This document shows, one piece after another, positions 3,693 to 56,343 of a DNA stretch of 64,000 bases. The stretch spans positions 99,860 through 163,859 of the forward strand of contig CAWFSD010000003.1 in assembly GCA_963818245.1 (NCBI GenBank), given 5' to 3'. The notes beneath the pieces are model-generated. The model did no database searches and was not told the origin of the DNA. It saw nothing but the letters and a program-made list of their open reading frames with translations. Numbering within the stretch: the first letter of the stretch is position 1; each line of letters opens with the position of its first letter. Source of the stretch: an uncultured Planctomycetota bacterium. GTDB taxonomy: Bacteria; Planctomycetota; UBA11346. The translations under genes and the position numbers were made by a program.

Positions 3693-5247
3693 TCAGCCCA
3701 TGCCGGCCACCGTGAGGATCACATAGAGCCCCGCGGCGAAGATGCCCGAACCGAGGATCACGCACACCGGCATGGTCAGCACCCACGCGAGCAGGATGCT
3801 GACCAGCGTGCGCCCCTGCAGGCCGGAGCCGTTCGCGGCCATGGTGCCGGCGATGCCCGAGGACAGCACGTGCGTGGTCGAGACCGGCAGGCCGAGCACG
3901 TCGGCGGTGGCGATGGTGGTCATCGCCACCAGCTCCGCCGAGGCGCCCTGCGCGTAGGTCAGGTGGGTCTTGCCGATCTTCTCGCCGACGGTGACGACGA
4001 TGCGCTTCCAGCCGATCATGGTGCCGAGGCCGAGGGCGAGCGCGACGGCGATCTTCACCCACAGCGGGATGAACTTGATCAGCGCGTCGAGGGCGCCCTT
4101 GTACGCGACCAGGTCGGTCTGCTCCTTGGCGTCGGTCAGGCGCTTCTGCTTGTTCAGCTTCGCGATCGACTCGTCGACCAGGTAGACGTCCTTGCGCAGG
4201 GCGCGGCGCTCGGCGTCGGTCAGCTGCGCGAGCCCGGTCTTCCCCGCCAACGCGGTGATGATGCGCTGGTTGACCGCGACCAGCGCGGGGTAGGTGGTGT
4301 CGCCGAACGTCCCGCTCGACTTGACGAACGCCGAGAGCGCGTCGGCCTGGTCGAGCGCGATCGGGGCGGGTCCCGCGCCGGGCACGACCAGGGCCGTCGG
4401 CGCGGTCGCCTCGGCGATGGAGGGCGAGGCCGGCGCCGCCGCCGCCGCGTGGGCCGAGAACAGCTCCTGCGCGTGCTGCGCGCGCGCCTGCAGCTGCTTG
4501 AGCGTCTCCACGTCGCTGTCCATGCGCAGCGCGTACACGCCCGGGATGATGCCGATCAGGATCAGCATGATCAGGCCCATGCCCTTCTGCCCGTCGTTGC
4601 TGCCGTGCGCGAAGCTGACGCCGGTGCAGGTCAGCACCAGCAGGCCGCGGATCCACAGCGGCGGCGGCGCGCTTGTCGAGCGGCGCCTGGAACAGCTCGG
4701 GACGGCGCACGGTCACCTTCAGCACCAGCAGCAGCAGGCCCGCCGCGCAGAAGCCGACCACCGGCGAGATCAGCAGCGCCATGAACACGTCCTTGGCCTT
4801 GCCCCAGTTGACGCCGTCGCCGAAGGCGGCGCCCTTGGCCATCAGCGAATTGACCATGCCCACGCCCATGATCGAGCCGATCAGGGTGTGCGAGCTGGAG
4901 GCCGGCAGGCCCAGCCACCACGTGCCCAGGTTCCACATGATCGCCGACAGCAGCAGCGCGAAGACCATGGTGAAGCCCGCCGACGAACCCGAGTTGATCA
5001 CCAGCTCGACCGGCAGCAGCGCGAGGATGCCGAACGCGACGGCGCCGGTCGACACCAGCACGCCGACCAGGTTCCACAGGCCCGACCACACCACCGCCGT
5101 CCACGGTCTCAGGGTGTTGGTGTAGATCACCGTCGCCACCGCGTTGGCGGTGTCGTGGAAGCCGTTGACGAACTCGAAGGCCAGGGCCAGGCCCACGGCC
5201 AGGACCAGGAACAGCAGCGAACCGGTGGTGAGGGAGGCGGCTTCCAT
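3693..5247 (-). CDS. pitA: inorganic phosphate transporter, PiT family. Apparent 1-bp frameshift near 4658-4668 splits it into an N-terminal part (4660-5247) and a C-terminal part (3693-4637).
   Basis: N-terminal part GFHDTANAVATVIYT and C-terminal part SFAHGSNDGQKGMGLI are the two PiT signature repeats. The junction ...PLDKRA/APPLWIRGLLVLTCTG requires one extra G/C in a GC run. SD AGGAGA precedes the ATG at 5247. Confidence 0.8.
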
Positions 5248-5481
5248 GGACGTTCTCCTGCAGCGTGGGCCCGTGGTCGTTGGCGCAGGCCAGGGGCGAG
5301 GGCGCCACGGTGGACGTCCGTGTGTCGGATCGGTGAAGGGCGGGTGAAGGTGGGCGCGTCGCAGGCCCACGGGCGCGGCCTCGGGCCCGGACGGTGGCGC
5401 TGCGAGGCCGTGGCGTCCGCTGCCGACCCGCGCCCGGTTTTCGGCTTCCCCGCCGCGGCCGCCGGCGGCACGATCGCGGCC

Positions 5482-6901: not shown

Positions 6902-8044
6902 TCAGAAGCCGGGATTCTCCGCGGGTTTGGGCGCCTCGCCACCCTGCGGCGGCGCGCCGCCCGGCTGGCCGTTGGGTCCGCCTCCGGGACCTCCAGGCCC
7001 GCCCGGCCGCCCATTGCGCCGCCCGTCGCGCGGCGGCCCGCCGCCGCCCCACATGCCCGGGAAGCCGCGCGCGCCGAAGCGCGGGCGCAGCCAGCCGACC
7101 AGCGGCGAATCGCCGGCGATCTGCCAGTGGTCCTCGTGGCGGACGAGCTTGAGCGGCAGCGCCTCGGCCTTGCCGAAGGCGGTGAACGCGACGGTGACGT
7201 AGCGCGCGTCGTCCTCGCCGGGCACGGGCCGGGGCTCGCCGACCTTGGCCGAGTCCAGCACCTGGTCGAGCTGCAGGTCGTAGAGCGCGAGCAGCGCCTT
7301 GAGTCCGCCCAGGCTCTTGCCGAGGCGGCCCGCGGCGTCGTCGATGGTGATGGCGCCGAGCTCCGCGGCCGTGCCCACGCCCAGGCCCTTGATCAGCGCG
7401 GCGAACTGCGCGGTCGCCTTGGCCTGCTTGTCGGCGTCATCCAGCCCCGCGCCCTTGGACCACGCGGCGAAGCCGTCGAGCAGGTCGGCGATGGCCCTGG
7501 TCTGCTCGGCCTCCAGGCCGGTGGCGAGGATGTCGCCGACCGTGCCCGCGAGCAGGTTGGGGACCAGGAAGCCGGTGCGGCGCGGCTCGGCGTCGGCGGG
7601 CGCGCCCGGCTTGGCGGCCAGCCCCTGCAGGGTCGCGGCCAGGCCGTCGCCGCCGATGAACAGCGAGAAGATCTGCTGGAAGTGGCGGTCGGCCTCAGGC
7701 CCGCCGTTGCCGAGCGCGAGCAGGCGCTCGATGACGCCGTCGCGGAACGGGTTGTTCTGCCCGGCGAAGCGCTTCCAGGAGCTCTCGAGGTCGCTGCGCT
7801 GCGCCGGCGCGAGGCGCGCGAGCAGCCCGGTCGCGTCGTTGCCGCGCAGCGCCTTGATCAGCTCGGTCAGCGCGGCGTCGGCGCTCGGCGCGGCCGGCGC
7901 CGGCGGTACAGGCGCGACCGGCGCGACCACCGCGGGTGGCGCGGCCTCGGCGGCGGGCGCGAGCGCCGGGGCGATGGTGAGCGAACCGGTGACCAGCGCG
8001 GCACCGGCGAGGACGGCGAGGCCGCCGATCTTGAGCATGGCCAT
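6902..8044 (-). CDS. secreted hypothetical protein with a Gly/Pro-rich C-terminus
   Basis: Start MAMLKIGGLAVLAGAALVTGSLTIAPALA is a signal peptide, with GGAG 8 nt upstream. It lies in the same frame as the upstream sigma-factor C-terminus with no intervening stop. Confidence 0.5.
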   Translation of the reverse strand: MAMLKIGGLAVLAGAALVTGSLTIAPALAPAAEAAPPAVVAPVAPVPPAPAAPSADAALTELIKALRGNDATGLLARLAPAQRSDLESSWKRFAGQNNPFRDGVIERLLALGNGGPEADRHFQQIFSLFIGGDGLAATLQGLAAKPGAPADAEPRRTGFLVPNLLAGTVGDILATGLEAEQTRAIADLLDGFAAWSKGAGLDDADKQAKATAQFAALIKGLGVGTAAELGAITIDDAAGRLGKSLGGLKALLALYDLQLDQVLDSAKVGEPRPVPGEDDARYVTVAFTAFGKAEALPLKLVRHEDHWQIAGDSPLVGWLRPRFGARGFPGMWGGGGPPRDGRRNGRPGGPGGPGGGPNGQPGGAPPQGGEAPKPAENPGF

Positions 8045-8226
8045 GGTGGTGACTCCAGCGGAAGCGGCGGTGGCGGCGGCAGCGGCGGAAAGCGCGGCGG
8101 CGGGCGGGGCCATGCCCGCCGCGGCGGCGTGCGCGGTGGCGGCGGCGAAGGCGAGGGGCACCGGCGCGGCCGCGGCCTGGGCCTCGGCGGCGAGCAGCCC
8201 GGCGAGGGCGAGCGCACCGACGGCGA

Positions 8227-8783
8227 CGCCGCGGCGGCCGAGCACCTCGCGCAACTGCTCGCGCCCGCGGCTGAGCAGCGAGGCGAGGGTGCCGGGGTTG
8301 AGGTTCAGCAGGCGCGCGACCTCCTCCTGGGGATGGCCTTCGAGGTAGTGCAGGACCAGCGGCACGCGGTAGCGCTCGCTGAGCCGGTCGAGGGCGCCGT
8401 CGAGCTCCTCGCGGAGTTCGGTGCGCCGGCGCTCGTCGAGCGGCTCTTCGGGAAGGGTCATGGCGCTGGCCTCCTCATGGCGACGGCGGATGCGCCCGGC
8501 GTCGCGCTGGCGCGCGGCGACGTGGCGGGCGGTGCGGTGCAGCCAGCCGCCCAGGGTGGGATGGTCGGTGAGCGACCTCGGCCTTGTCGGCGAGGACCAG
8601 GAACACCGCCTGCGCGGCGTCCTCGGCGTCGGCCCCGGGTCCGAGGATGCGCCGGCAGGTCGCCAGCACCATCTGCCCGTGGCGGCGCAGCAGCTCGGCG
8701 AAGGCCGCCTCCCGCTCCACGACCGGCCCGCCGCCGCTGAAGGCGGTGAGCAGGGCGGCATCGCTGGTCGTCGATCGTACCAT
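8227..8783 (-). CDS. ECF-type sigma-70 factor. Apparent 1-bp frameshift near 8575, and no in-frame stop before the downstream gene.
   Basis: Region 2 (FAELLRRHGQMVLATCRRILG...AQAVFLVL) is in the frame of ORF 8475..8783. Region 2.4/4 (LTDHPTLGGWLHRTARHVAARQ...VPLVLHYLEGHPQEEVARLLNLNPGTLASLLSRGREQLREVL) is in the frame of ORF 6902..8899. Confidence 0.6.
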
Positions 8784-8820
8784 GGTTGCCCTCTATCCGG
8801 CCACGCGCCGGTGGACTTGC

Positions 8821-8851
8821 GGGGAACTTCCCGGAACCAGACCTGTTCCCC
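8821..8851. promoter_or_regulatory. overlapping dyads GGGAAcTTCCC and GGAACcagacctGTTCC in the ECF sigma upstream region
   Basis: Direct reading. GGAAC is the typical ECF -35 core. Confidence 0.4.
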
Positions 8852-8883
8852 TGCTCGGGGAGGGGGACGGATGGAACCGCCAG

Positions 8884-8993
8884 GACGCCAAGGCGCCAAG
8901 GGCCGGTGGTTCGAGGTGGAAGGCGCTGCTCATGACGCTCCTAGCGCACGTTCGCTCTGGCTGTCGAGCCTTGGCGCCTTGGCGCCTTGGCGG
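8884..8993. repeat. MITE-like element: arm gacgccaaggcgccaagg, about 65-bp core, inverted arm ccttggcgccttggcgccttggcgg (CGCCAAGG octamer units)
   Basis: Direct reading. Lies in the intergenic region upstream of the ECF sigma gene. Confidence 0.85.
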
Positions 8994-9031
8994 TTCTATC
9001 CTGCGGGTCCGATCACCCCGCGGTCAAGCGC

Positions 9032-10108
9032 TTACGACGCGAACGCCAGGCGCGTCCAGGCGCCGCGGTCGGCCGAGCCGCGGCACGCCCACAGCTCGCG
9101 GCGCGCCGGCACCGTGACCATGCAGGCGTTGGTGCTGGTGCCCTGGCCGTCCTCGGCGAAGCGGTTGATCGAGTCGCTGCCGTCGGCGCGGTCGGCGAAC
9201 AGGCGCTGCAGGCTGGCGACGTCCTGACCACCGCCGTCCAGCAGCGCGCCGAGCCGCGCCAGGCGCGCGCGCGACGACGGGCTCGCCGGCTCGCCCTCGC
9301 GCGCGCGGTGGGCCTCGTCCAGGCAGTGGTTGGTGCGGTAGAGCGGGCGGTCCCCGGCGCGGTGCACCGCGCTGTCGGCGGTGCACTCCCAGTCGTCGAT
9401 CCCGCCCGCGTCCGCCGCCCAGTAGGTGTGCGCGGCCGCGCGCGGGCCACCGGTGAAGACCCGCCCGGCGGCGGCGCGGTCGCTTTCGCGCAGGGCGCGG
9501 TGCAGCAGCGACAGGTAGGGGATGCCCACGCGCGAACCGCGCGTCTTGATGTTGGTGGTGCCCACCGCCACGCCGTGCGCGTTCATGCCGATCAGCGACG
9601 GGCAGCCGGCGCAGGTGATGCTCCAGGTCTCGGGCCCGGCGCTCGGCCGGCGGTGCACCGCGACCACGAAGTCGAGGTCGCCGGGGTTCAGGTCCCAGCT
9701 CTGCGCGGCGTGCACCGCGCCGTCCGCCGCGTGCGTCGCCGGCACCAGCGCCGTCGAGCAGCCCTCCGCCTCGGCCGCGCGCGCCGGCAGCGCGAGGATG
9801 TCGCGGATGTCGGTCATGTTCGCGGTGGTGTAGAGATCGACCGCGTCGACGCCCGCGCCCGCCGCCAGCGCCTGGTGTTCGACCCAGCCCGCCTCGTCCC
9901 ACCCCTTGAGCGCCGCCAGGCACGCCGCGCCGAGCGCGCGGAAGGCCTGCTCATCGCGGATGCCGCGCTCGTACAGGTACGCGCGCGCCGCGCGCAGGCG
10001 CTGGCTCACGAAGTCCCCGATGCGCTCCTTGAGCTGCTCGCCCTGCCCCCGCCCGAGGGCCGCGGCATCGCCGGACACGTGGATCTGGGGGAGGTCGAGC
10101 AGCGGCAT
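9032..10108 (-). CDS. C45-family peptidase / acyl-CoA:6-aminopenicillanic-acid acyltransferase-like protein
   Basis: AAT-like fold with GCSTALV (N-terminal nucleophile Cys context). Possible starts are ATG 10108 or TTG 10141. The antisense ORF 8987..10153 is junk. Confidence 0.7.
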   Translation of the reverse strand: MPLLDLPQIHVSGDAAALGRGQGEQLKERIGDFVSQRLRAARAYLYERGIRDEQAFRALGAACLAALKGWDEAGWVEHQALAAGAGVDAVDLYTTANMTDIRDILALPARAAEAEGCSTALVPATHAADGAVHAAQSWDLNPGDLDFVVAVHRRPSAGPETWSITCAGCPSLIGMNAHGVAVGTTNIKTRGSRVGIPYLSLLHRALRESDRAAAGRVFTGGPRAAAHTYWAADAGGIDDWECTADSAVHRAGDRPLYRTNHCLDEAHRAREGEPASPSSRARLARLGALLDGGGQDVASLQRLFADRADGSDSINRFAEDGQGTSTNACMVTVPARRELWACRGSADRGAWTRLAFAS

Positions 10109-10173
10109 ACGTGGAGGGTACCGCGACCATGGCGGCAGCAAAGGGCCGGGTAAGCAGCGTTGCGCAGTGAAAG

Positions 10174-10412
10174 ACCTGGACCCTGGACCGTGGACACCTG
10201 GACCCTAGACCCTAGACCCTAGACATAGGGACGAGGTGATCAGTAGAGCCTCGACGCGGAACAGGGCATCGAAGATCGCGAAAGTGGATGCATTCCATCG
10301 GCGAAGTTTCAGACAACGCCATAAAAAGCAGGCAGTCCGCCTAGGGTCTAGGGTCTAGGGTCTCAGGGTCTAGGGTCTCAGGGTCTAGGGTCCAGGGTCC
10401 AGGGTCCAAGAA
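10174..10412. repeat. composite element: (GACCCTA)n array, about 105-bp lower-GC core, inverted (TAGGGTC)n array
   Basis: Direct reading: ctggaccctagaccctagaccctaga...core...ctagggtctagggtctagggtctcagggtctagggtc. Lies between the C45 and SnoaL genes. Confidence 0.9.
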
Positions 10413-10414
10413 CC

Positions 10415-12039: not shown

Positions 12040-12302
12040 GGCGAGGCGCGAGGCGCGAGGGACGAGGCGCGAGGCGCGAGGGACGAGGCGCGAGGCACGA
12101 GGCGCGAGGCGCGAGGCGCGAGGCGCGAGGCACGAGGCACCGCGCTCGGGTGCCTGGAATGTTTATAGACCCAAGCGCGAGGAGCCAGCCTTGGGCCATT
12201 GTGCCCGACGATGTCGCTTCACGTGTTCGGCCTATCCGCGCATGAACCGGATATCTAGGGTCTGGGTCCAGGGTCCAGGGACTCGGGGTCCGGGTCCAGG
12301 GA
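12040..12302. repeat. hybrid element: (GCGAGGC)n array, about 110-bp core, (TAGGGTC)-like array
   Basis: cgaggcgcgaggcgcgagggacgaggcg... about 14 units, then tctagggtctgggtccagggtccaggg. Lies between astA and the sigma-factor gene. Confidence 0.85.
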
Positions 12303-17091: not shown

Positions 17092-17109
17092 GAGGGCGCT
17101 GCGCGCAGG

Positions 17110-17200
17110 CACAGGCGCGAGGCGCGAGGCGCGAGGCGCGACGGGCGAGTCACGAGTCACGACGCGCGAGGCACGAGACGCGACGCGCGAGGGACAGCCT
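17110..17200. repeat. (GCGAGGC)n-type heptamer array, degenerating
   Basis: gcgaggcgcgaggcgcgaggcgcgacgggcgagtcacgagtcacgacgcgcgaggcacgagacgcgacgcgcgaggg. Confidence 0.8.
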
Positions 17201-17281
17201 TTGGCTGTCGGTGCGGTAGGGGTGCGAGCGGGCATCGCCGCGCTCGTATGGGCGTGAGGCGCGGGATGCGAGGTGGTGATC

Positions 17282-17590
17282 ATGGGCGGAATGCTGTTCC
17301 TGCTCGGTGCGTTCGGCCTCATGGTGGCAGGGGGATTCGCGTATTTCCTGCGCCGGAGCCGGATCGGCACGTGGGCGGTGCTCGCTGGGGCTGGGGGGCT
17401 GTCGTGGTGGGCAGCGCACTACCTCCACGCATTGGGCAGCGGAGTGCCGCTCACGGCAGACCAGGAATGGCATCGCACCTACCTCGTCTGGCTGCTGGCC
17501 GTCATCCCATGCGCACTGCTCATCGGGGGCGTGATCGGCTTCCACCTGCGCCGGCGCGCGTACATGGCGCAGTACCGTGGGATCCGGTGA
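17282..17590 (+). CDS. small membrane protein (3 predicted TM helices)
   Basis: AGGTGG SD 6 nt upstream of the ATG. Hydrophobic helices. Codon usage is typical. Confidence 0.45.
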   Translation: MGGMLFLLGAFGLMVAGGFAYFLRRSRIGTWAVLAGAGGLSWWAAHYLHALGSGVPLTADQEWHRTYLVWLLAVIPCALLIGGVIGFHLRRRAYMAQYRGIR

Positions 17591-17625
17591 CGGTCACGTG
17601 CTGAGGCGCCTCGCGCCTCACGCCT

Positions 17626-22741: not shown

Positions 22742-22770
22742 CCCTGGACCCCAGGTAGGTCAGGGGGTTT

Positions 22771-22923
22771 CTGCCGCAGGGACGCAGAGCTGCAGCGAGG
22801 GCCGCAGAGGGGAGGTGCTGGCGAGGCGGGAAGGTGACGTGACGGCTGCACCAGCGTCAGACCGCAGATCCCCTGCAGGCCGTCCTCCGCGGCCCTCGCT
22901 GCAGCTCTGCGTCTCTGCGGCAG
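22771..22923. repeat. MITE-like element with 40-bp terminal inverted repeats (ctgccgcagggacgcagagctgcagcgagggccgcagagg / cctccgcggccctcgctgcagctctgcgtctctgcggcag)
   Basis: 2 mismatches in 40 bp. 73-bp core. Lies between the hypothetical gene and ychJ. Confidence 0.85.
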
Positions 22924-22942
22924 GATCCTTCGGGATCCCTGC

Positions 22943-27280: not shown

Positions 27281-27552
27281 ACCTTGGACAGACCCTGGAC
27301 CCTGGACCCTGGGCCTGGGCCTGGGCCCTGGACCCTGGACCCTAGACCCTAGACCCTAGACCCTAGACCCTAGACCCTAGCCAGTCCGACCGGGTCGGAA
27401 GAGCGTCATCGCGAACGAGGGTCCGAATGCGTTCTTCGTGATGATTGAAAAGCCGCATGCGGTGATCCGGCCGACGACGCGCGCGGGCGACGCACCGGTA
27501 ACATGTCTAGGGTCTAGGGTCTAGGGTCTAGGGCCTCGCGCCTCGCGCCCCC
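27281..27552. repeat. composite element: (GACCCTR)n about 14 units, about 125-bp core, inverted (TCTAGGG)4 directly abutting (CCTCGCG)3
   Basis: Direct reading. Lies in the divergent region between the ABC-F gene and the nfu-like gene. Confidence 0.9.
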
Positions 27553-34749: not shown

Positions 34750-35024
34750 CAGCCGCAGAGACGCAGAGTTGCGGAGAGGGCCGCAGAGAAGAATGAGGAC
34801 TGGGTGCGGCGACCCGAAGCGTCAAGGCTTTCGACCTTTCGCGGTTGGAAAGCGCTGTCCTCTGCGGCCCTCTCTGAAACTCCGCGTCTCGCGGCAAAGT
34901 CGCCGAACGACAGAGCCGGCGCTTGGCGGCGCCGGTCTCGATCGGCTGCTGCCGCATCGGTCACCCAGCTCCAGGGTCCGCCCTCTGCGGCCCTCTCTGG
35001 AACTCTGCGTCTCTGCGGCTATGG
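34750..35024. repeat. MITE-like element of the same CTCTGCGGCC-TIR family, with an extra internal arm copy near 34858-34896
   Basis: Left arm cagccgcagagacgcagagttgcggagagggccgcagag. Right arm ccctctgcggccctctctggaactctgcgtctctgcggct. Lies downstream of purB. Confidence 0.85.
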
Positions 35025-40622: not shown

Positions 40623-43214
40623 CTACTGCCGCGGTCGCCCCCGCGCCTGCGGCGGCGCCGTCAGCGGATCGTCCGGCCACGAGTGCTTGGGGTAGCGCGC
40701 GCGCAGGTCCTTGCGCACCTGCGGGTAGGTGTTGGCCCAGAACGAGGCCAGATCCTGGGTGATCTGCTCCACGCGGTAGTTCGGGGCGAGCAGGTGGAGG
40801 AGGATCGGGACGCGGCCGCGCGCCAGGCGCGGCGTCGCGGCCAGGCCGAACAGCTCCTGCAGGCGCACCGCCAGGATCGGGGCGCGCTCCTCGCCGTACT
40901 GGAGGCGGATGGCGTTGCCGGTCGGCACGGTGAAGCGCTCCGGAGCGTGCTCGGCCAGGGCCTGCTGCTGGGCGCGGTCGAGGCGCGCGGCGAGCCAGTC
41001 GAGCGCCGGCTTGGCCGCGACCTCGGCGCGCATGGTGCAGCCGGCGCACAGCTCGCGCACCAGCTCGGCGAGGTCGGCGTCGCCGAGTTCCGGCAGGCCC
41101 AGCTCAGGGAGCTCGCGGCGCAGCCAGGCGACGCGCGCCAGCCACGAGCGCAGCGCGAGCTGGGCCTCGTCCGCGCCGTCCTCGGGGCCGAGCAGCAGCG
41201 CGCGCGCCTGCGGGGCGAGCGCGTCGGCGAGCAGCGTCGAGGCGGCGGCGGCGTCACCGGGCTGGCCGGGCGCCTCGCGCACCGCGAGGTCGCGGTACAT
41301 CCAGCGGATGGCGCTGACCACGCGGCCGCGCTCGGGGTCGTAGGCCAGGCGTTCCTCGCGGCGCACGCCGCCGGGCAGGTCGGCCAGCCAGGCCTCCTCG
41401 ATCTCGGCGCCCTGGCGCATCAGCACCACCGGTTTTCCGCCGCGCACCAGCTCCTGCAGCTCGGTGGCGACCAGCAGCGGCGCGCGCTCCTGGCCCTTGG
41501 CGGCGTGCAGCGCCGAGCCACGGTCGATCTCGATCGCCACGCCGCCGGCCAGCGCCGCGCGGTTGGCGTCGCCGCTGGCCCGCCCGTCGCCGCTGCGCTT
41601 GGCGACGCGGTCGGGGTAGGCGGCGAGCAGCAGCCGGCAGATCAGGTCGGGGTCGGCGCTGCGCTCGCGGTCGGCCTGGCGCCAGCCGCCGCCCCACGCC
41701 GCCAGGATCTCATCGCGCGCCTGCACCACCTGCGCGCACGCGCCGGGGTCGATGCCCTGGCTGCGCAGGTGGCCGGCGAAGCGCGCCTTGACGGCGTCGG
41801 CGAGCAGCTCGAGGCGCTCGAGCGCGTCGCACGGCGCGGGGTCGGCCGGTGGCTCGTCGTGGCGCGGCGGCAGGCGCACGTCGCGTTCGCCGGCCAGCGC
41901 GGCGAGGGTGGCGCCGAGCTGCGGGCACTGCGCCTGCGCGGCGGCGTGCAGCAGGCGCCCGAGGCGCGGGTGCAGCGGCAGACCGGCGAGGCGCTCGCCG
42001 AGCTGGGTGAGTCCGGCGTACGGCGCGGTGAGCGCGCCGAGCAGGTGCAGCAGCTCCTCCGCGGCCGCCCCGCGCACCGCCTCGGGCGGGTCGAACCACG
42101 GGAAGGTGCGGGTGTCGGCGTAGCCCAGGCCCTTGAGCGCGAGGGTCACCGGCGCGAGGTCGACGCGGCGGATCTCCGGCGCGGTGGCGGCCTCGAGGCG
42201 GCCGTCGGCGAGCGGCGTCCACAGGCGGATGCAGCGCCCCGGCGCGGTGCGTCCGGCGCGGCCGGCGCGCTGGGCCGCGGACTGGCGGCTGATCATCTGC
42301 AGGCGCAGCTCGTCCAGGCCGGTGCCCGGGTCGTGGCGCAGCACGCGCGCCTGCCCGGAGTCGATCACCGTGCGCACGCCGGGGATGGTCACCGAAGTCT
42401 CGGCGACGTTGGTGGCGAGGACGATGCGCGGCCGCGGACCCGGCGACAGCGCGCGGTCCTGCTCCTCGGGCGGCAGCGCGCCGTGCAGGGGCAGGACGTC
42501 CACCCCCTGGACGGCCTCCAGCGCGCGCTGGCAGGCGCGGATCTCGCCCATGCCGGCGAGGAACACCAGGATGTCGCCGCACTCCGGGTCGAGGCGTGCC
42601 TGCGCCACGCAGCGCGCCACGGTGTCGCCGATGGCGAGGTCCTGCGCGCCCTGCCAATGGCTGGTGACGACCGGGAACGCCCGCCCGGGCGATTCGACCA
42701 CTGCGCACCCGCCGAGGAACTCGGCGACCGGCCGCGCGTCCATGGTCGCCGACATCACCACGATGACCAGGTCCTCGCGCACCGTGCGCTGCAGTTCGCG
42801 CAGGTAGGACAGCGCCAGGTCGGTGTGCAGGCTGCGCTCGTGGAACTCGTCGAGGATCACCACCCCGACGCCGTCCAGGTAGGGGTCGGCCTGGAGCTGG
42901 CGCGTCAGCGAGCCTTCGGTCATCACCCACAGCCGCGTCGCCGGCCCGCCGCTCTTCTCGAAGCGCACGCGGAAGCCGACCTCGCGCCCGAGCTGCCAGC
43001 CCTGCTCGTGCGCGATGCGCCGCGCCAGCGCCTTGGCAGCCAGCCGGCGCGGCTGCAGCAGGTAGACCTGCTTGCTCGACAGCCCGACCAGCAGCGGGGG
43101 CACGCGCGTGCTCTTGCCGGCGCCGGGCGGCGCCGTCAGCACCAGTGCCCGCCCCGCCGCCAGGGTGGCACGCAGCTCCGGCAGGATCTCGTCGATGGGC
43201 AGGGGGTCGGGCAC
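40623..43214 (-). CDS. hrpB: ATP-dependent RNA helicase HrpB
   Basis: DEAH box ILDEFHERS, Walker A PPGAGKST, SATMD, QRAGRAGR. Full-length HrpB C-terminal domain. Confidence 0.9.
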   Translation of the reverse strand: MPDPLPIDEILPELRATLAAGRALVLTAPPGAGKSTRVPPLLVGLSSKQVYLLQPRRLAAKALARRIAHEQGWQLGREVGFRVRFEKSGGPATRLWVMTEGSLTRQLQADPYLDGVGVVILDEFHERSLHTDLALSYLRELQRTVREDLVIVVMSATMDARPVAEFLGGCAVVESPGRAFPVVTSHWQGAQDLAIGDTVARCVAQARLDPECGDILVFLAGMGEIRACQRALEAVQGVDVLPLHGALPPEEQDRALSPGPRPRIVLATNVAETSVTIPGVRTVIDSGQARVLRHDPGTGLDELRLQMISRQSAAQRAGRAGRTAPGRCIRLWTPLADGRLEAATAPEIRRVDLAPVTLALKGLGYADTRTFPWFDPPEAVRGAAAEELLHLLGALTAPYAGLTQLGERLAGLPLHPRLGRLLHAAAQAQCPQLGATLAALAGERDVRLPPRHDEPPADPAPCDALERLELLADAVKARFAGHLRSQGIDPGACAQVVQARDEILAAWGGGWRQADRERSADPDLICRLLLAAYPDRVAKRSGDGRASGDANRAALAGGVAIEIDRGSALHAAKGQERAPLLVATELQELVRGGKPVVLMRQGAEIEEAWLADLPGGVRREERLAYDPERGRVVSAIRWMYRDLAVREAPGQPGDAAAASTLLADALAPQARALLLGPEDGADEAQLALRSWLARVAWLRRELPELGLPELGDADLAELVRELCAGCTMRAEVAAKPALDWLAARLDRAQQQALAEHAPERFTVPTGNAIRLQYGEERAPILAVRLQELFGLAATPRLARGRVPILLHLLAPNYRVEQITQDLASFWANTYPQVRKDLRARYPKHSWPDDPLTAPPQARGRPRQ

Positions 43215-52152: not shown

Positions 52153-52180
52153 CCAGGATCACACCGGGGACCTTGATTTT

Positions 52181-52314
52181 AACCGCCAAGACGCCAAGGC
52201 GCCAAGGCTCGAGGGAGGGGGGTCGCGAAAAGTGCGGACGGGCGCCACGGGGGTGGGCCGCCGGCGGTCCCGCCCGGGGTCATGCCTTCCGTGGCGCCGT
52301 GGCGTCTTGGCGGT
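52181..52314. repeat. MITE-like element of the same family: 27-bp arm aaccgccaagacgccaaggcgccaagg, about 80-bp core, inverted arm ccgtggcgccgtggcgtcttggcggtt
   Basis: The arms are reverse complements with 2 mismatches. Lies between mazG-like and lpxL-like. Confidence 0.85.
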
Positions 52315-52339
52315 TGAAACCCTTGTTCGCAGCCAGCCG

Positions 52340-56045: not shown

Positions 56046-56112
56046 ATCTCTCAATCGGCGAAATCTGCGGAATCTGCGGACTCTCCCCTCTTGAGAATCC
56101 GCCGATTCCGCA
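56046..56112. repeat. hairpin element with 19-bp perfect inverted repeat cggcgaaatctgcggaatc / gattccgcagatttcgccg around a 29-bp loop
   Basis: Direct reading. Lies just downstream of the hemY stop. Could act as a terminator or REP-like element. Confidence 0.8.
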
Positions 56113-56224
56113 GATTTCGCCGATTATGAATGAATGCGACCGCATGTCCGTCGGGGCCAAGGTGACGTGTGGGTAATGGGCGGACCTCGGGCCCTGGGAG
56201 CGGTCCAACGATTCCTGGATTTCA

Positions 56225-56343
56225 ACGCAGAGGCCGCAGAGGAGAAAGGTCCGATTCCGCCGCCGTCATGCGCGTCTCGGTCAACCCACTCCTTCCGGCC
56301 GTCCTCTGCGGCCTCCTGCCTTCACCCTCTGCGGCCTCTGCGG
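56225..56343. repeat. short element of the CTCTGCGGCC family (aacgcagaggccgcagaggag ... cctctgcggcctctgcgg)
   Basis: Direct reading. The 3' end shares a 35-bp near-identical block with 61450-61484 (cctctgcggcctctgcggYaagcSgtccgcagga). Confidence 0.75.

Follow-up and report, generated by a model that had tools for sequence, protein, structure and literature searches.

Two intergenic elements in the 64,000-nt stretch of planctomycete DNA analyzed here (the window) are built from a short module that recurs, letter for letter, in several bacterial phyla and in phages. The reading we favor, tentatively and at a probability of roughly 0.45, is that these elements, A and B, represent two copies of a REP/REPIN-like module, cosmopolitan and non-autonomous, that is copied without leaving a target-site duplication (TSD) and forms hairpins at the 3' ends of genes. 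The evidence comes from the anatomy of the elements, the identity of the module across phyla, the absence of TSDs, a bias toward positions just past stop codons, the absence or replacement of the elements in relatives, and a polymorphism in the number of repeat units, each of which was observed directly.

Both elements consist of two inverted 27-nt arms of the form AAC+(CGCCAAGR)x3 around a core, element A covering positions 8875-8995 and element B positions 52181-52315:

8875-8901, plus strand: left arm of element A (forward module), AACCGCCAGGACGCCAAGGCGCCAAGG, which reads AAC + CGCCAGG-A-CGCCAAG-G-CGCCAAG-G
8902-8968: core of element A, 67 nt, unique, GC 66%, unstructured alone
8969-8995, minus strand: right arm of element A (reverse module), a perfect three-unit copy and the exact reverse complement of AACCGCCAAGGCGCCAAGGCGCCAAGG
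52181-52207, plus strand: left arm of element B (forward module), AACCGCCAAGACGCCAAGGCGCCAAGG, which reads AAC + CGCCAAG-A-CGCCAAG-G-CGCCAAG-G
52208-52288: core of element B, 81 nt, unique, GC 78%, unstructured alone
52289-52315, minus strand: right arm of element B (reverse module), the reverse complement of AACCGCCAAGACGCCACGGCGCCACGG

The arms of A are mismatched at two positions, as are those of B, where two A-to-C changes in the right arm produce CGCCACG units. A preliminary description of this DNA had recognized the right elements, although its positions were off by up to 9 bases, and it had counted the two mismatches in the right arm of B but left the two in A unmentioned. A repeat finder extended the inverted repeat of A to 33 nt (8869-9001, 91% complementary) and that of B to 31 nt (52177-52319, 90% complementary), and TRF reported three copies of period 8 in each arm. 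One arm of A and one arm of B have five extra bases in common (CGCCAAGG-CTCGA). The GC content of the window is 72%, and the two cores are unrelated to each other (local alignment, p=0.37).

A search of the window for the double octamer, allowing up to two mismatches, returned eight matches against 0.26 expected, all of them within the four arms, and none of 100 shuffles attained this number. Folded as a whole, A and B form long hairpins on both strands (z -6.2 to -7.9), and the stems are continuous, without an unpaired central spacer or extrahelical bases. The arms, their folding and the octamer count thus establish that inverted-arm elements around non-homologous cores exist, as the preliminary description had claimed. 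Chance palindromes are ruled out by the octamer statistics, the hairpin z-scores and the frequency of the arm relative to expectation. An assembly artefact or a contaminant is ruled out as well, because the flanks are lineage-specific, the module is present in finished isolate genomes, and the core and right arm of B were confirmed by the independent Logan assembly L121. Both contigs L121 and L122 terminate at element B.

A structured RNA gene within the cores was ruled out, as the cores alone fold no better than shuffles (z +1.1 and +1.5) and have no match in Rfam. Across the window, Rfam returned nothing at or above the gathering threshold; far below it, generic long-hairpin matches appeared at A and none at B. 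We found no terminator-like site (a GC-rich hairpin followed by a U tract) at A or B and no canonical promoter at the elements. The arm mismatches did not display strand-specific G-U wobble (37 versus 28 transitions, with 47 transversions), and their within-element concordance was 7 versus 7. With no strand-consistent G-U preference, the mismatches offer no support for RNA-level selection on the stem.

The repeated unit is a single module of about 27-30 nt and not the whole element. In loci matching the pattern AACCGCCARGRCGCCAMGG, sister arrays carry an AAC lead followed by three C[G/A]C-NNNN units (CGCAGAG, CGCAAAG, CACAGAG, CACGAAG, CGCAGAT or CGCAAGG) with one or two spacer bases, and their reverse arms terminate in GYG-GTT. 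From this shared plan it follows that the octamer is a heptamer plus a spacer; the arms earlier called octamer-based do have a period of 8, but their underlying unit is seven bases long. Single modules occur mostly in Nostocales, and doubled or nested ones in L003, L015, L051, L078, L104 and L071. Paired modules may converge on a core, as those of A and B do, or diverge from a loop of 9-11 nt (L137, L138 and L241), and pairs of mixed families occur in L137 and at 12041-12301 of the window. Across 59-70 arm pairs the cores are unrelated and 57-261 nt long. In a Dehalococcoidia MAG (L012, 1386-1760), we also observed tandem units of ~115-145 nt, each with a CGCCAAG module followed by a parS-like TGTTTCACGTGAAAC.

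Scanning one genome per species for the 19-mer pattern AACCGCCARGRCGCCAMGG yielded at least 120 loci, where chance would produce roughly 35-250 matches over the whole genome collection. Among the matches listed, a third CGCCAAG unit follows in 72% of 142 and a reverse arm lies within 450 nt in 56% of 142, and the module consensus reads ttG-AAC-CGCCAAG-A-CGCCAAG-GA-CGCCAAG-aa. The isolates among these listed matches are Sorangium (several species), Nostoc, Tolypothrix, Scytonema, Oscillatoria and Botrimarina, and the MAGs among them add about ten further phyla, with labels including Chloroflexota, Verrucomicrobiota, Lentisphaerae, Acidobacteriota, Armatimonadota, Bacteroidota, Methylomirabilota and others as well as alpha-, beta- and gamma-Proteobacteria. 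At least 120 metagenome contigs (49-74% GC) contain the exact 27-mer of the window, against a chance expectation of ~0.001 per Tb. Phage contigs carry true modules too (four in L263), a Nostoc megaplasmid holds one exact copy and the module at four further places, and at a Nostoc plasmid locus (L127) the module sits within the loop of an outer 13-bp inverted repeat. In 5,426 E. coli genomes (28 Gb) the module had no match. An unannotated direct array on Vibrio parahaemolyticus plasmids, (ACGCCAAG)x7 at L128 1478-1530, has no AAC lead and is probably an unrelated simple repeat. The further copies of the arm that the preliminary description had proposed to look for thus exist, and the second family it named is real, but the arm is common to many phyla instead of being confined to the source genome. 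This identity across phyla is the surprising part of the finding.

According to a crude GC3-based gene map and Pfam scans, the genes of the window are ordinary housekeeping genes throughout, and the nearest named homologues are from Planctomycetota. A and B both separate co-directional housekeeping genes. Element A lies on the minus-strand transcript; it follows a C45/AAT peptidase gene (9032-10108, minus), starting 30 nt past its stop codon, and ends ~90 nt ahead of an ECF sigma gene (ATG at 8783). Element B belongs to a HIT-MazG-LpxL-HemE cluster, where it follows the MazG-like gene, 24 nt past its stop codon, and precedes the gene for an LpxL-like acyltransferase by 20 nt. Paired elements in high-GC loci (n=83) occupy 45 co-directional, 28 convergent and 10 divergent spacers, a distribution that differs from the spacer baseline of 362/108/119 (chi-square p=0.0008). 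When the spacer is co-directional, they lie at a median of ~23 nt from the upstream stop codon, to which A and B conform. Unpaired modules are likewise biased, 66 versus 28 being downstream of a same-strand gene (p=1e-4). Modules within predicted genes are in sense orientation in 13 of 14 cases, for which over-extension of ORFs by the gene finder may account. T is absent from forward modules and A from reverse modules (e.g., 8875-8901), so that the modules are free of stop codons in all six frames. Elsewhere in the window, ARAGORN reported a 92-nt tRNA-Glu (41854-41945) inside an HrpB-like helicase ORF (40623-43214), probably a false positive.

The spacers that hold the elements differ among close relatives. 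The relative L272 is 94-97% identical to the window over ~10 kb, with 97% identity in the flanks of the A site, and it fails to align only at two repeat elements and at one 1.7-kb indel. The segment that bears element A has no counterpart in L272; it extends from immediately behind the C45/AAT peptidase stop codon to a point ~50 nt short of the ECF sigma ATG. In a more distant relative (L273, 75%), the A site is occupied by an inverted heptamer element of the GTGCGAA type. Moreover, a GACCCTA/TAGGGTC element at 10168-10413 of the window is replaced in L272 (1613-1861) by (CGCGAGG)x14...CCTCGTG of similar length, and the two cores have only ~12 bases in common, namely GGCGGACNGCC after the left array. 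The compared segments are as follows:

8833-9029: segment with element A, 197 nt, in place of which L272 has 50 unrelated nt
52153-52339: MazG-to-LpxL spacer holding element B, which varies among relatives
B site in L270 (94% MazG identity): a CGCAGAG-family module 22 nt past the stop codon
B site in L271 (93% MazG identity): a (TGCGGAG)x5 array
B site in L269 (85% MazG identity, full synteny): no spacer (0 nt), the genes overlapping
B site in L265-268 (86% MazG identity): a 79-nt spacer without arrays
B site in L125 (60% LpxL identity): a 97-nt spacer without B, with a GTCCGGG mini-array

In all relatives compared, divergence sets in directly after the stop codon, and the final 12-50 nt before the next start codon are conserved. 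The comparison of empty sites proposed earlier gave a divided answer: A is gone from L272, and B is absent or replaced in relatives, but no clean empty site was found among them, because the whole segment from the stop codon on differs. As the sites are not clean empties, homologous recombination that swapped spacer alleles would leave the same picture. Further differences were observed. A 1.7-kb segment of the window (3707-5411), which includes part of a PHO4-like transporter gene and some small ORFs, is missing from L272, where the flanks are joined within ~37 nt. The ECF sigma/anti-sigma gene (6902-8783, minus) contains a 1-nt insertion relative to L272 at ~8578; L272 has a single ORF of 626 aa there, and Sigma70_r2 and Sigma70_r4 are in different frames in the window. 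The split is due to a sequencing error, or else the gene is a pseudogene. In L269, the spacers that border the HemE homologue on either side (7293-7467 and 8569-8868) carry inverted copies of a different ~150-nt palindromic repeat (CTAGCAGGATGCTG..., TTTTCGCGCG...), and L269 thus uses another repeat type at those positions.

Nearly every longer spacer of the window holds an inverted tandem-array element, from the GACCCTA, CGCGAGG, CGCAGAG-type and CCGCAGATT families. At 12041-12301, (GCGAGGC)x14 faces (GGGTCCA)x5 over a core, and at 27505-27549, (TAGGGTC)x4 directly abuts (GCCTCGC)x2.4. At 17101-17625, a GCGCGAG array on one side (17101-17192) and an inverted GCGCCTC array on the other (17606-17625) flank a core the size of a gene, with an ORF (17270-17590) for a hydrophobic protein of 107 aa; the ORF has no Pfam match, and its GC3 is comparatively low (0.84). 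Further inverted elements, at 22766-22928, 34751-35020, 56226-56342 and 56053-56125, have arms that are longer and composite, either CGCAGAG-type (38-45 nt, 91-95% complementary) or CCGCAGATT-type, and these two composite families also occur in other phyla and at the B site of L270. Telomere-like end addition would account for arrays inverted about a core, but we rejected it since the arrays come in both polarities (C-rich first in the window, G-rich first in L125). The earlier suggestion that one process generates all array families is supported, though not proven, by the different families found at the same site in near-identical genomes, by the mixed-family pairs and by families that directly abut.

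How the module spreads was addressed through the ends of the elements and the genes around them. No TSD is present at A or B. Among 59 arm pairs, TSDs were absent from 54 at the AACC/GGTT boundary and from 49 at the boundary of the extended inverted repeat, and the counts were indistinguishable from a shuffled-flank control; the TSDs that the preliminary description had proposed to look for thus did not appear beyond this control. In the absence of such duplications, the spread would resemble REP/REPIN or single-strand and hairpin routes and not cut-and-paste transposition. Among the ~50 proteins of the window there was no Pfam match to a transposase, an integrase or RAYT/Y1_Tnp, and at the 120 loci listed no gene family was linked to the module, the neighbors being only generic kinase, ABC and SDR clusters. 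An autonomous IS with module ends was found neither in the window, nor around the 120 loci listed, nor between distant arm pairs, where the ORFs, judged by inspection of their sequences, look like ordinary phage or metabolic genes.

Taking these results together, we infer copy-and-insert spread, the kind of enzyme behind it and a role at the RNA level as follows. A module of ~27-30 nt, consisting of (t)TG-AAC and three CGCCAAG heptamers spaced by 1-2 bases, would be copied into short spacers, mostly just past stop codons. Two modules in inverted orientation would bracket whatever DNA lies between them and give a stem of 26-33 bp. After arrival, the arms may behave as simple-sequence repeats that gain and lose units by slippage, and whole spacer segments may be gained, lost or swapped for elements of sister families. 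At the 3' end of the upstream mRNA, the hairpin would most likely act as a stem-loop or be tolerated as one. The polymorphism of four units versus three in orthologous contigs and the 27/27 identity of the forward arm in three diverged orthologs, both described below, also speak for this reading. Several observations do not sit easily with a copied module: ~10 of the 83 paired elements lie between divergent genes, no copying enzyme was found in the window and no linked gene family at the 120 loci listed, relatives offer no clean empty site, the cores are unique with no donor copy of A or B seen within 64 kb of the source genome, and A and B bear no U-tract terminator signature.

Among known systems, the REP, BIME and REPIN sequences resemble the CGCCAAG module most in their arrangement, being short extragenic units that occur singly, as inverted dimers (either head-to-head or tail-to-tail) and in clusters, with dimers that form long hairpins around a less conserved spacer, no TSD, a preference for the 3' side of genes and proposed roles in mRNA 3'-end stability (Bertels and Rainey, 2011, PMC3116915; Di Nocera, 2013, PMC3733652). 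The module is likewise extragenic, mostly 3' of genes, and present as inverted dimers in both orders and as doubled arms. However, a REP unit is a small self-palindromic stem-loop with a GTAG or CGTC tag (PMC3733652), whereas the module, a triple heptamer preceded by AAC, is not palindromic apart from an internal GGCGCC and carries neither tag. Moreover, REP families are restricted to species or genera, while the CGCCAAG module is identical across phyla, and no RAYT association was seen for it among the window proteins.

The GGGAATC arrays of Xanthomonas form 70-75 convergent heptamer-array pairs per genome (Rehm, 2015, PMC4692102); they are intergenic, rare between divergent ORFs, located near stop codons and without a link to IS, and their unit number differs between relatives (PMC4692102). 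The elements studied here share with them head-to-tail units of 7-9 nt in convergent arrays, the positional biases and the variation in unit number, but the CGCCAAG module differs in its fixed three-unit design, its specific lead and spacers and its occurrence across phyla. Neither a quadruplex-type nor a lineage-specific unit was found: CGCCAAGG contains no GGG run, and without G-tracts the quadruplex idea is inapplicable to it. The GACCCTA/TAGGGTC elements of the window fit directly among the Xanthomonas-type inverted heptamer arrays. The TAACTGA direct repeats of Beggiatoaceae, Cyanobacteria and Bacteroidetes, for which horizontal spread is suspected and the mechanism is unexplained (MacGregor, 2015, PMC4679880), are, like the cyanobacterial STRR heptamers, a case of a specific heptamer in the intergenic DNA of distant lineages. 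TAACTGA repeats differ in being almost always direct arrays just 5' of start codons, with one inverted case reported, and in having a sequence and spacing unlike those of the CGCCAAG module. A literature search for the literal arm and for sister and heptamer sequences returned primer coincidences only, none of the papers in the library searched showing the module, and a topic search only related heptamer and REP papers. The SDRs of Nostoc, reportedly described by Elhai and colleagues in 2008, are said to be dispersed units of 21-27 nt that seem mobile, encode nothing, often lie inside other repeats or hairpins and are specific to cyanobacteria. By this description, they resemble the module as very short dispersed non-coding units, and the module of L127 nested in an outer inverted repeat is comparable.

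It is conceivable, although we consider it unlikely, that the modules are functional cis-elements, either arrays of heptamers to which a conserved protein would bind in DNA or RNA, or an mRNA leader or trailer that is rich in purines and unstructured. Selection would then fix the sequence, the hairpin would be one arrangement of it, and spread would be secondary, via recombination or horizontal transfer of spacers. The forward arm is indeed 27/27 identical in three diverged orthologs in which the adjacent 43-nt leader (5'UTR) has diverged, and the module is conserved in Nostocales, where it is compositionally odd against genomes of 43% GC. The compact phage contig L263 retains four single sense modules between structural genes, immediately 5' of ribosome-binding sites, and the orientation bias of single modules relative to genes would also be expected; a comparable proposal exists for the TAACTGA heptamer repeats (PMC4679880). 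However, relatives with 93-97% identical flanks have no module or another family at the same spacer, which is hard to square with an essential site. The 8-9-nt spacing is unlike that of known bacterial DNA-binding arrays, and the inner spacer base is frequently mismatched, without co-variation, between the arms of an element. We know of no candidate protein that binds the module.

An origin in place without any mobility, by slippage expansion of a short unit, intramolecular template switching at a quasi-palindrome that would transfer changes from one arm to the other, and ectopic gene conversion that would make the arms of a genome uniform, appears improbable to us as an account of the whole, although parts of it agree well with the arms. 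The number of units in an arm changes through slippage, one arm being longer by a single 8-nt unit in one of several orthologous metagenome contigs (four units versus three, L146 versus L189/L210). Within an array, a unit resembles its neighbors more closely than remote units. In addition, the outer spacer bases of the two arms of an element co-vary (55 of 70 versus 38 expected), and the Xanthomonas GGGAATC arrays hold their position across species while their unit number shifts, without linkage to IS (PMC4692102). What such an origin fails to explain is the same 27-30-mer, with its non-repeated AAC lead and its A and GA spacers, in several phyla and phages, and the wholesale substitution of both arms and core in genomes whose flanks are 97% identical.

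We regard it as very improbable that A and B are classical MITEs, whose arms would be terminal inverted repeats recognized by a DDE transposase from another part of the genome. The elements resemble MITEs in being small, non-coding and multicopy, with inverted ends (the 27-nt arms), and in being polymorphic between relatives, including absence from a close one. Furthermore, in L156, L203, L206, L220 and L232, the module lies inside a longer conserved-core repeat with ~55-nt inverted ends at different insertion sites, and in Sorangium it lies inside a conserved repeat of ~170 bp. A and B, however, are alike in their arms alone and have no common internal sequence, no TSD was distinguishable from the control in the 59 pairs, and no cognate transposase was found in the window or between distant arm pairs. 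The arms behave as independent modules, single, doubled and in either order, and an identical arm across phyla is unlike the behavior of IS ends. The label MITE-like used in the preliminary description is therefore only partly supported: a dispersed, dynamic family with inverted arms around unrelated cores is there, but TSDs and a conserved body are not, and no linked transposase was found in the window or at the 120 loci listed.

We give hardly any credence to attC-like or other site-specific recombination sites, whose AAC...GTT ends would be cut by a tyrosine recombinase and whose spacers would be exchangeable cassettes: AAC and GTT are the only outer-end bases common to all sister families, integron attC R boxes likewise carry AAC/GTT, the size (57-260 nt) and variable center agree, and whole elements are replaced cassette-like at fixed sites, but measured against the attC boxes (RYYYAAC / GTTRRRY) the consensus tTGAAC / GTTCAa breaks the Y/R positions, with a fourth base that is usually C (GTTC) and not a purine, the stems run through without a break and leave neither a central spacer unpaired nor any base extrahelical, and the elements are scattered in all orientations among housekeeping genes, with no integrase in the window and no cassette array.

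Returning to the copied module, a broader proposal is possible, which we put forward with more doubt than the reading of A and B itself. CGCCAAG and its sisters (CGCAGAG, CGCAAAG, CACAGAG, CACGAAG and CGCAGAT) may represent previously undescribed, pan-bacterial mobile modules of ~30 nt that pass between phyla, including by phages, are written behind stop codons by a trans-acting activity that leaves no duplication, and are the source of the excess of heptamer repeats long noted and unexplained in cyanobacteria, xanthomonads, planctomycetes and myxobacteria. REPs, BIMEs, heptamer arrays and other short intergenic repeats are commonly regarded as lineage-specific curiosities. In contrast, the non-coding 27-30-mer studied here is letter-identical from Nostoc to Sorangium, planctomycetes and phages, and its host spacers are among the fastest-changing parts of genomes when 93-97% identical relatives are compared. 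A conserved module within such fast-changing spacers points to an active, sequence-specific writing and erasing of DNA downstream of genes. In practice, the modules could be used as markers for strain typing and could help to understand where metagenome contigs break. Identifying the putative process could explain the heptamer excess in many large-genome bacteria and may provide a new DNA-insertion activity.
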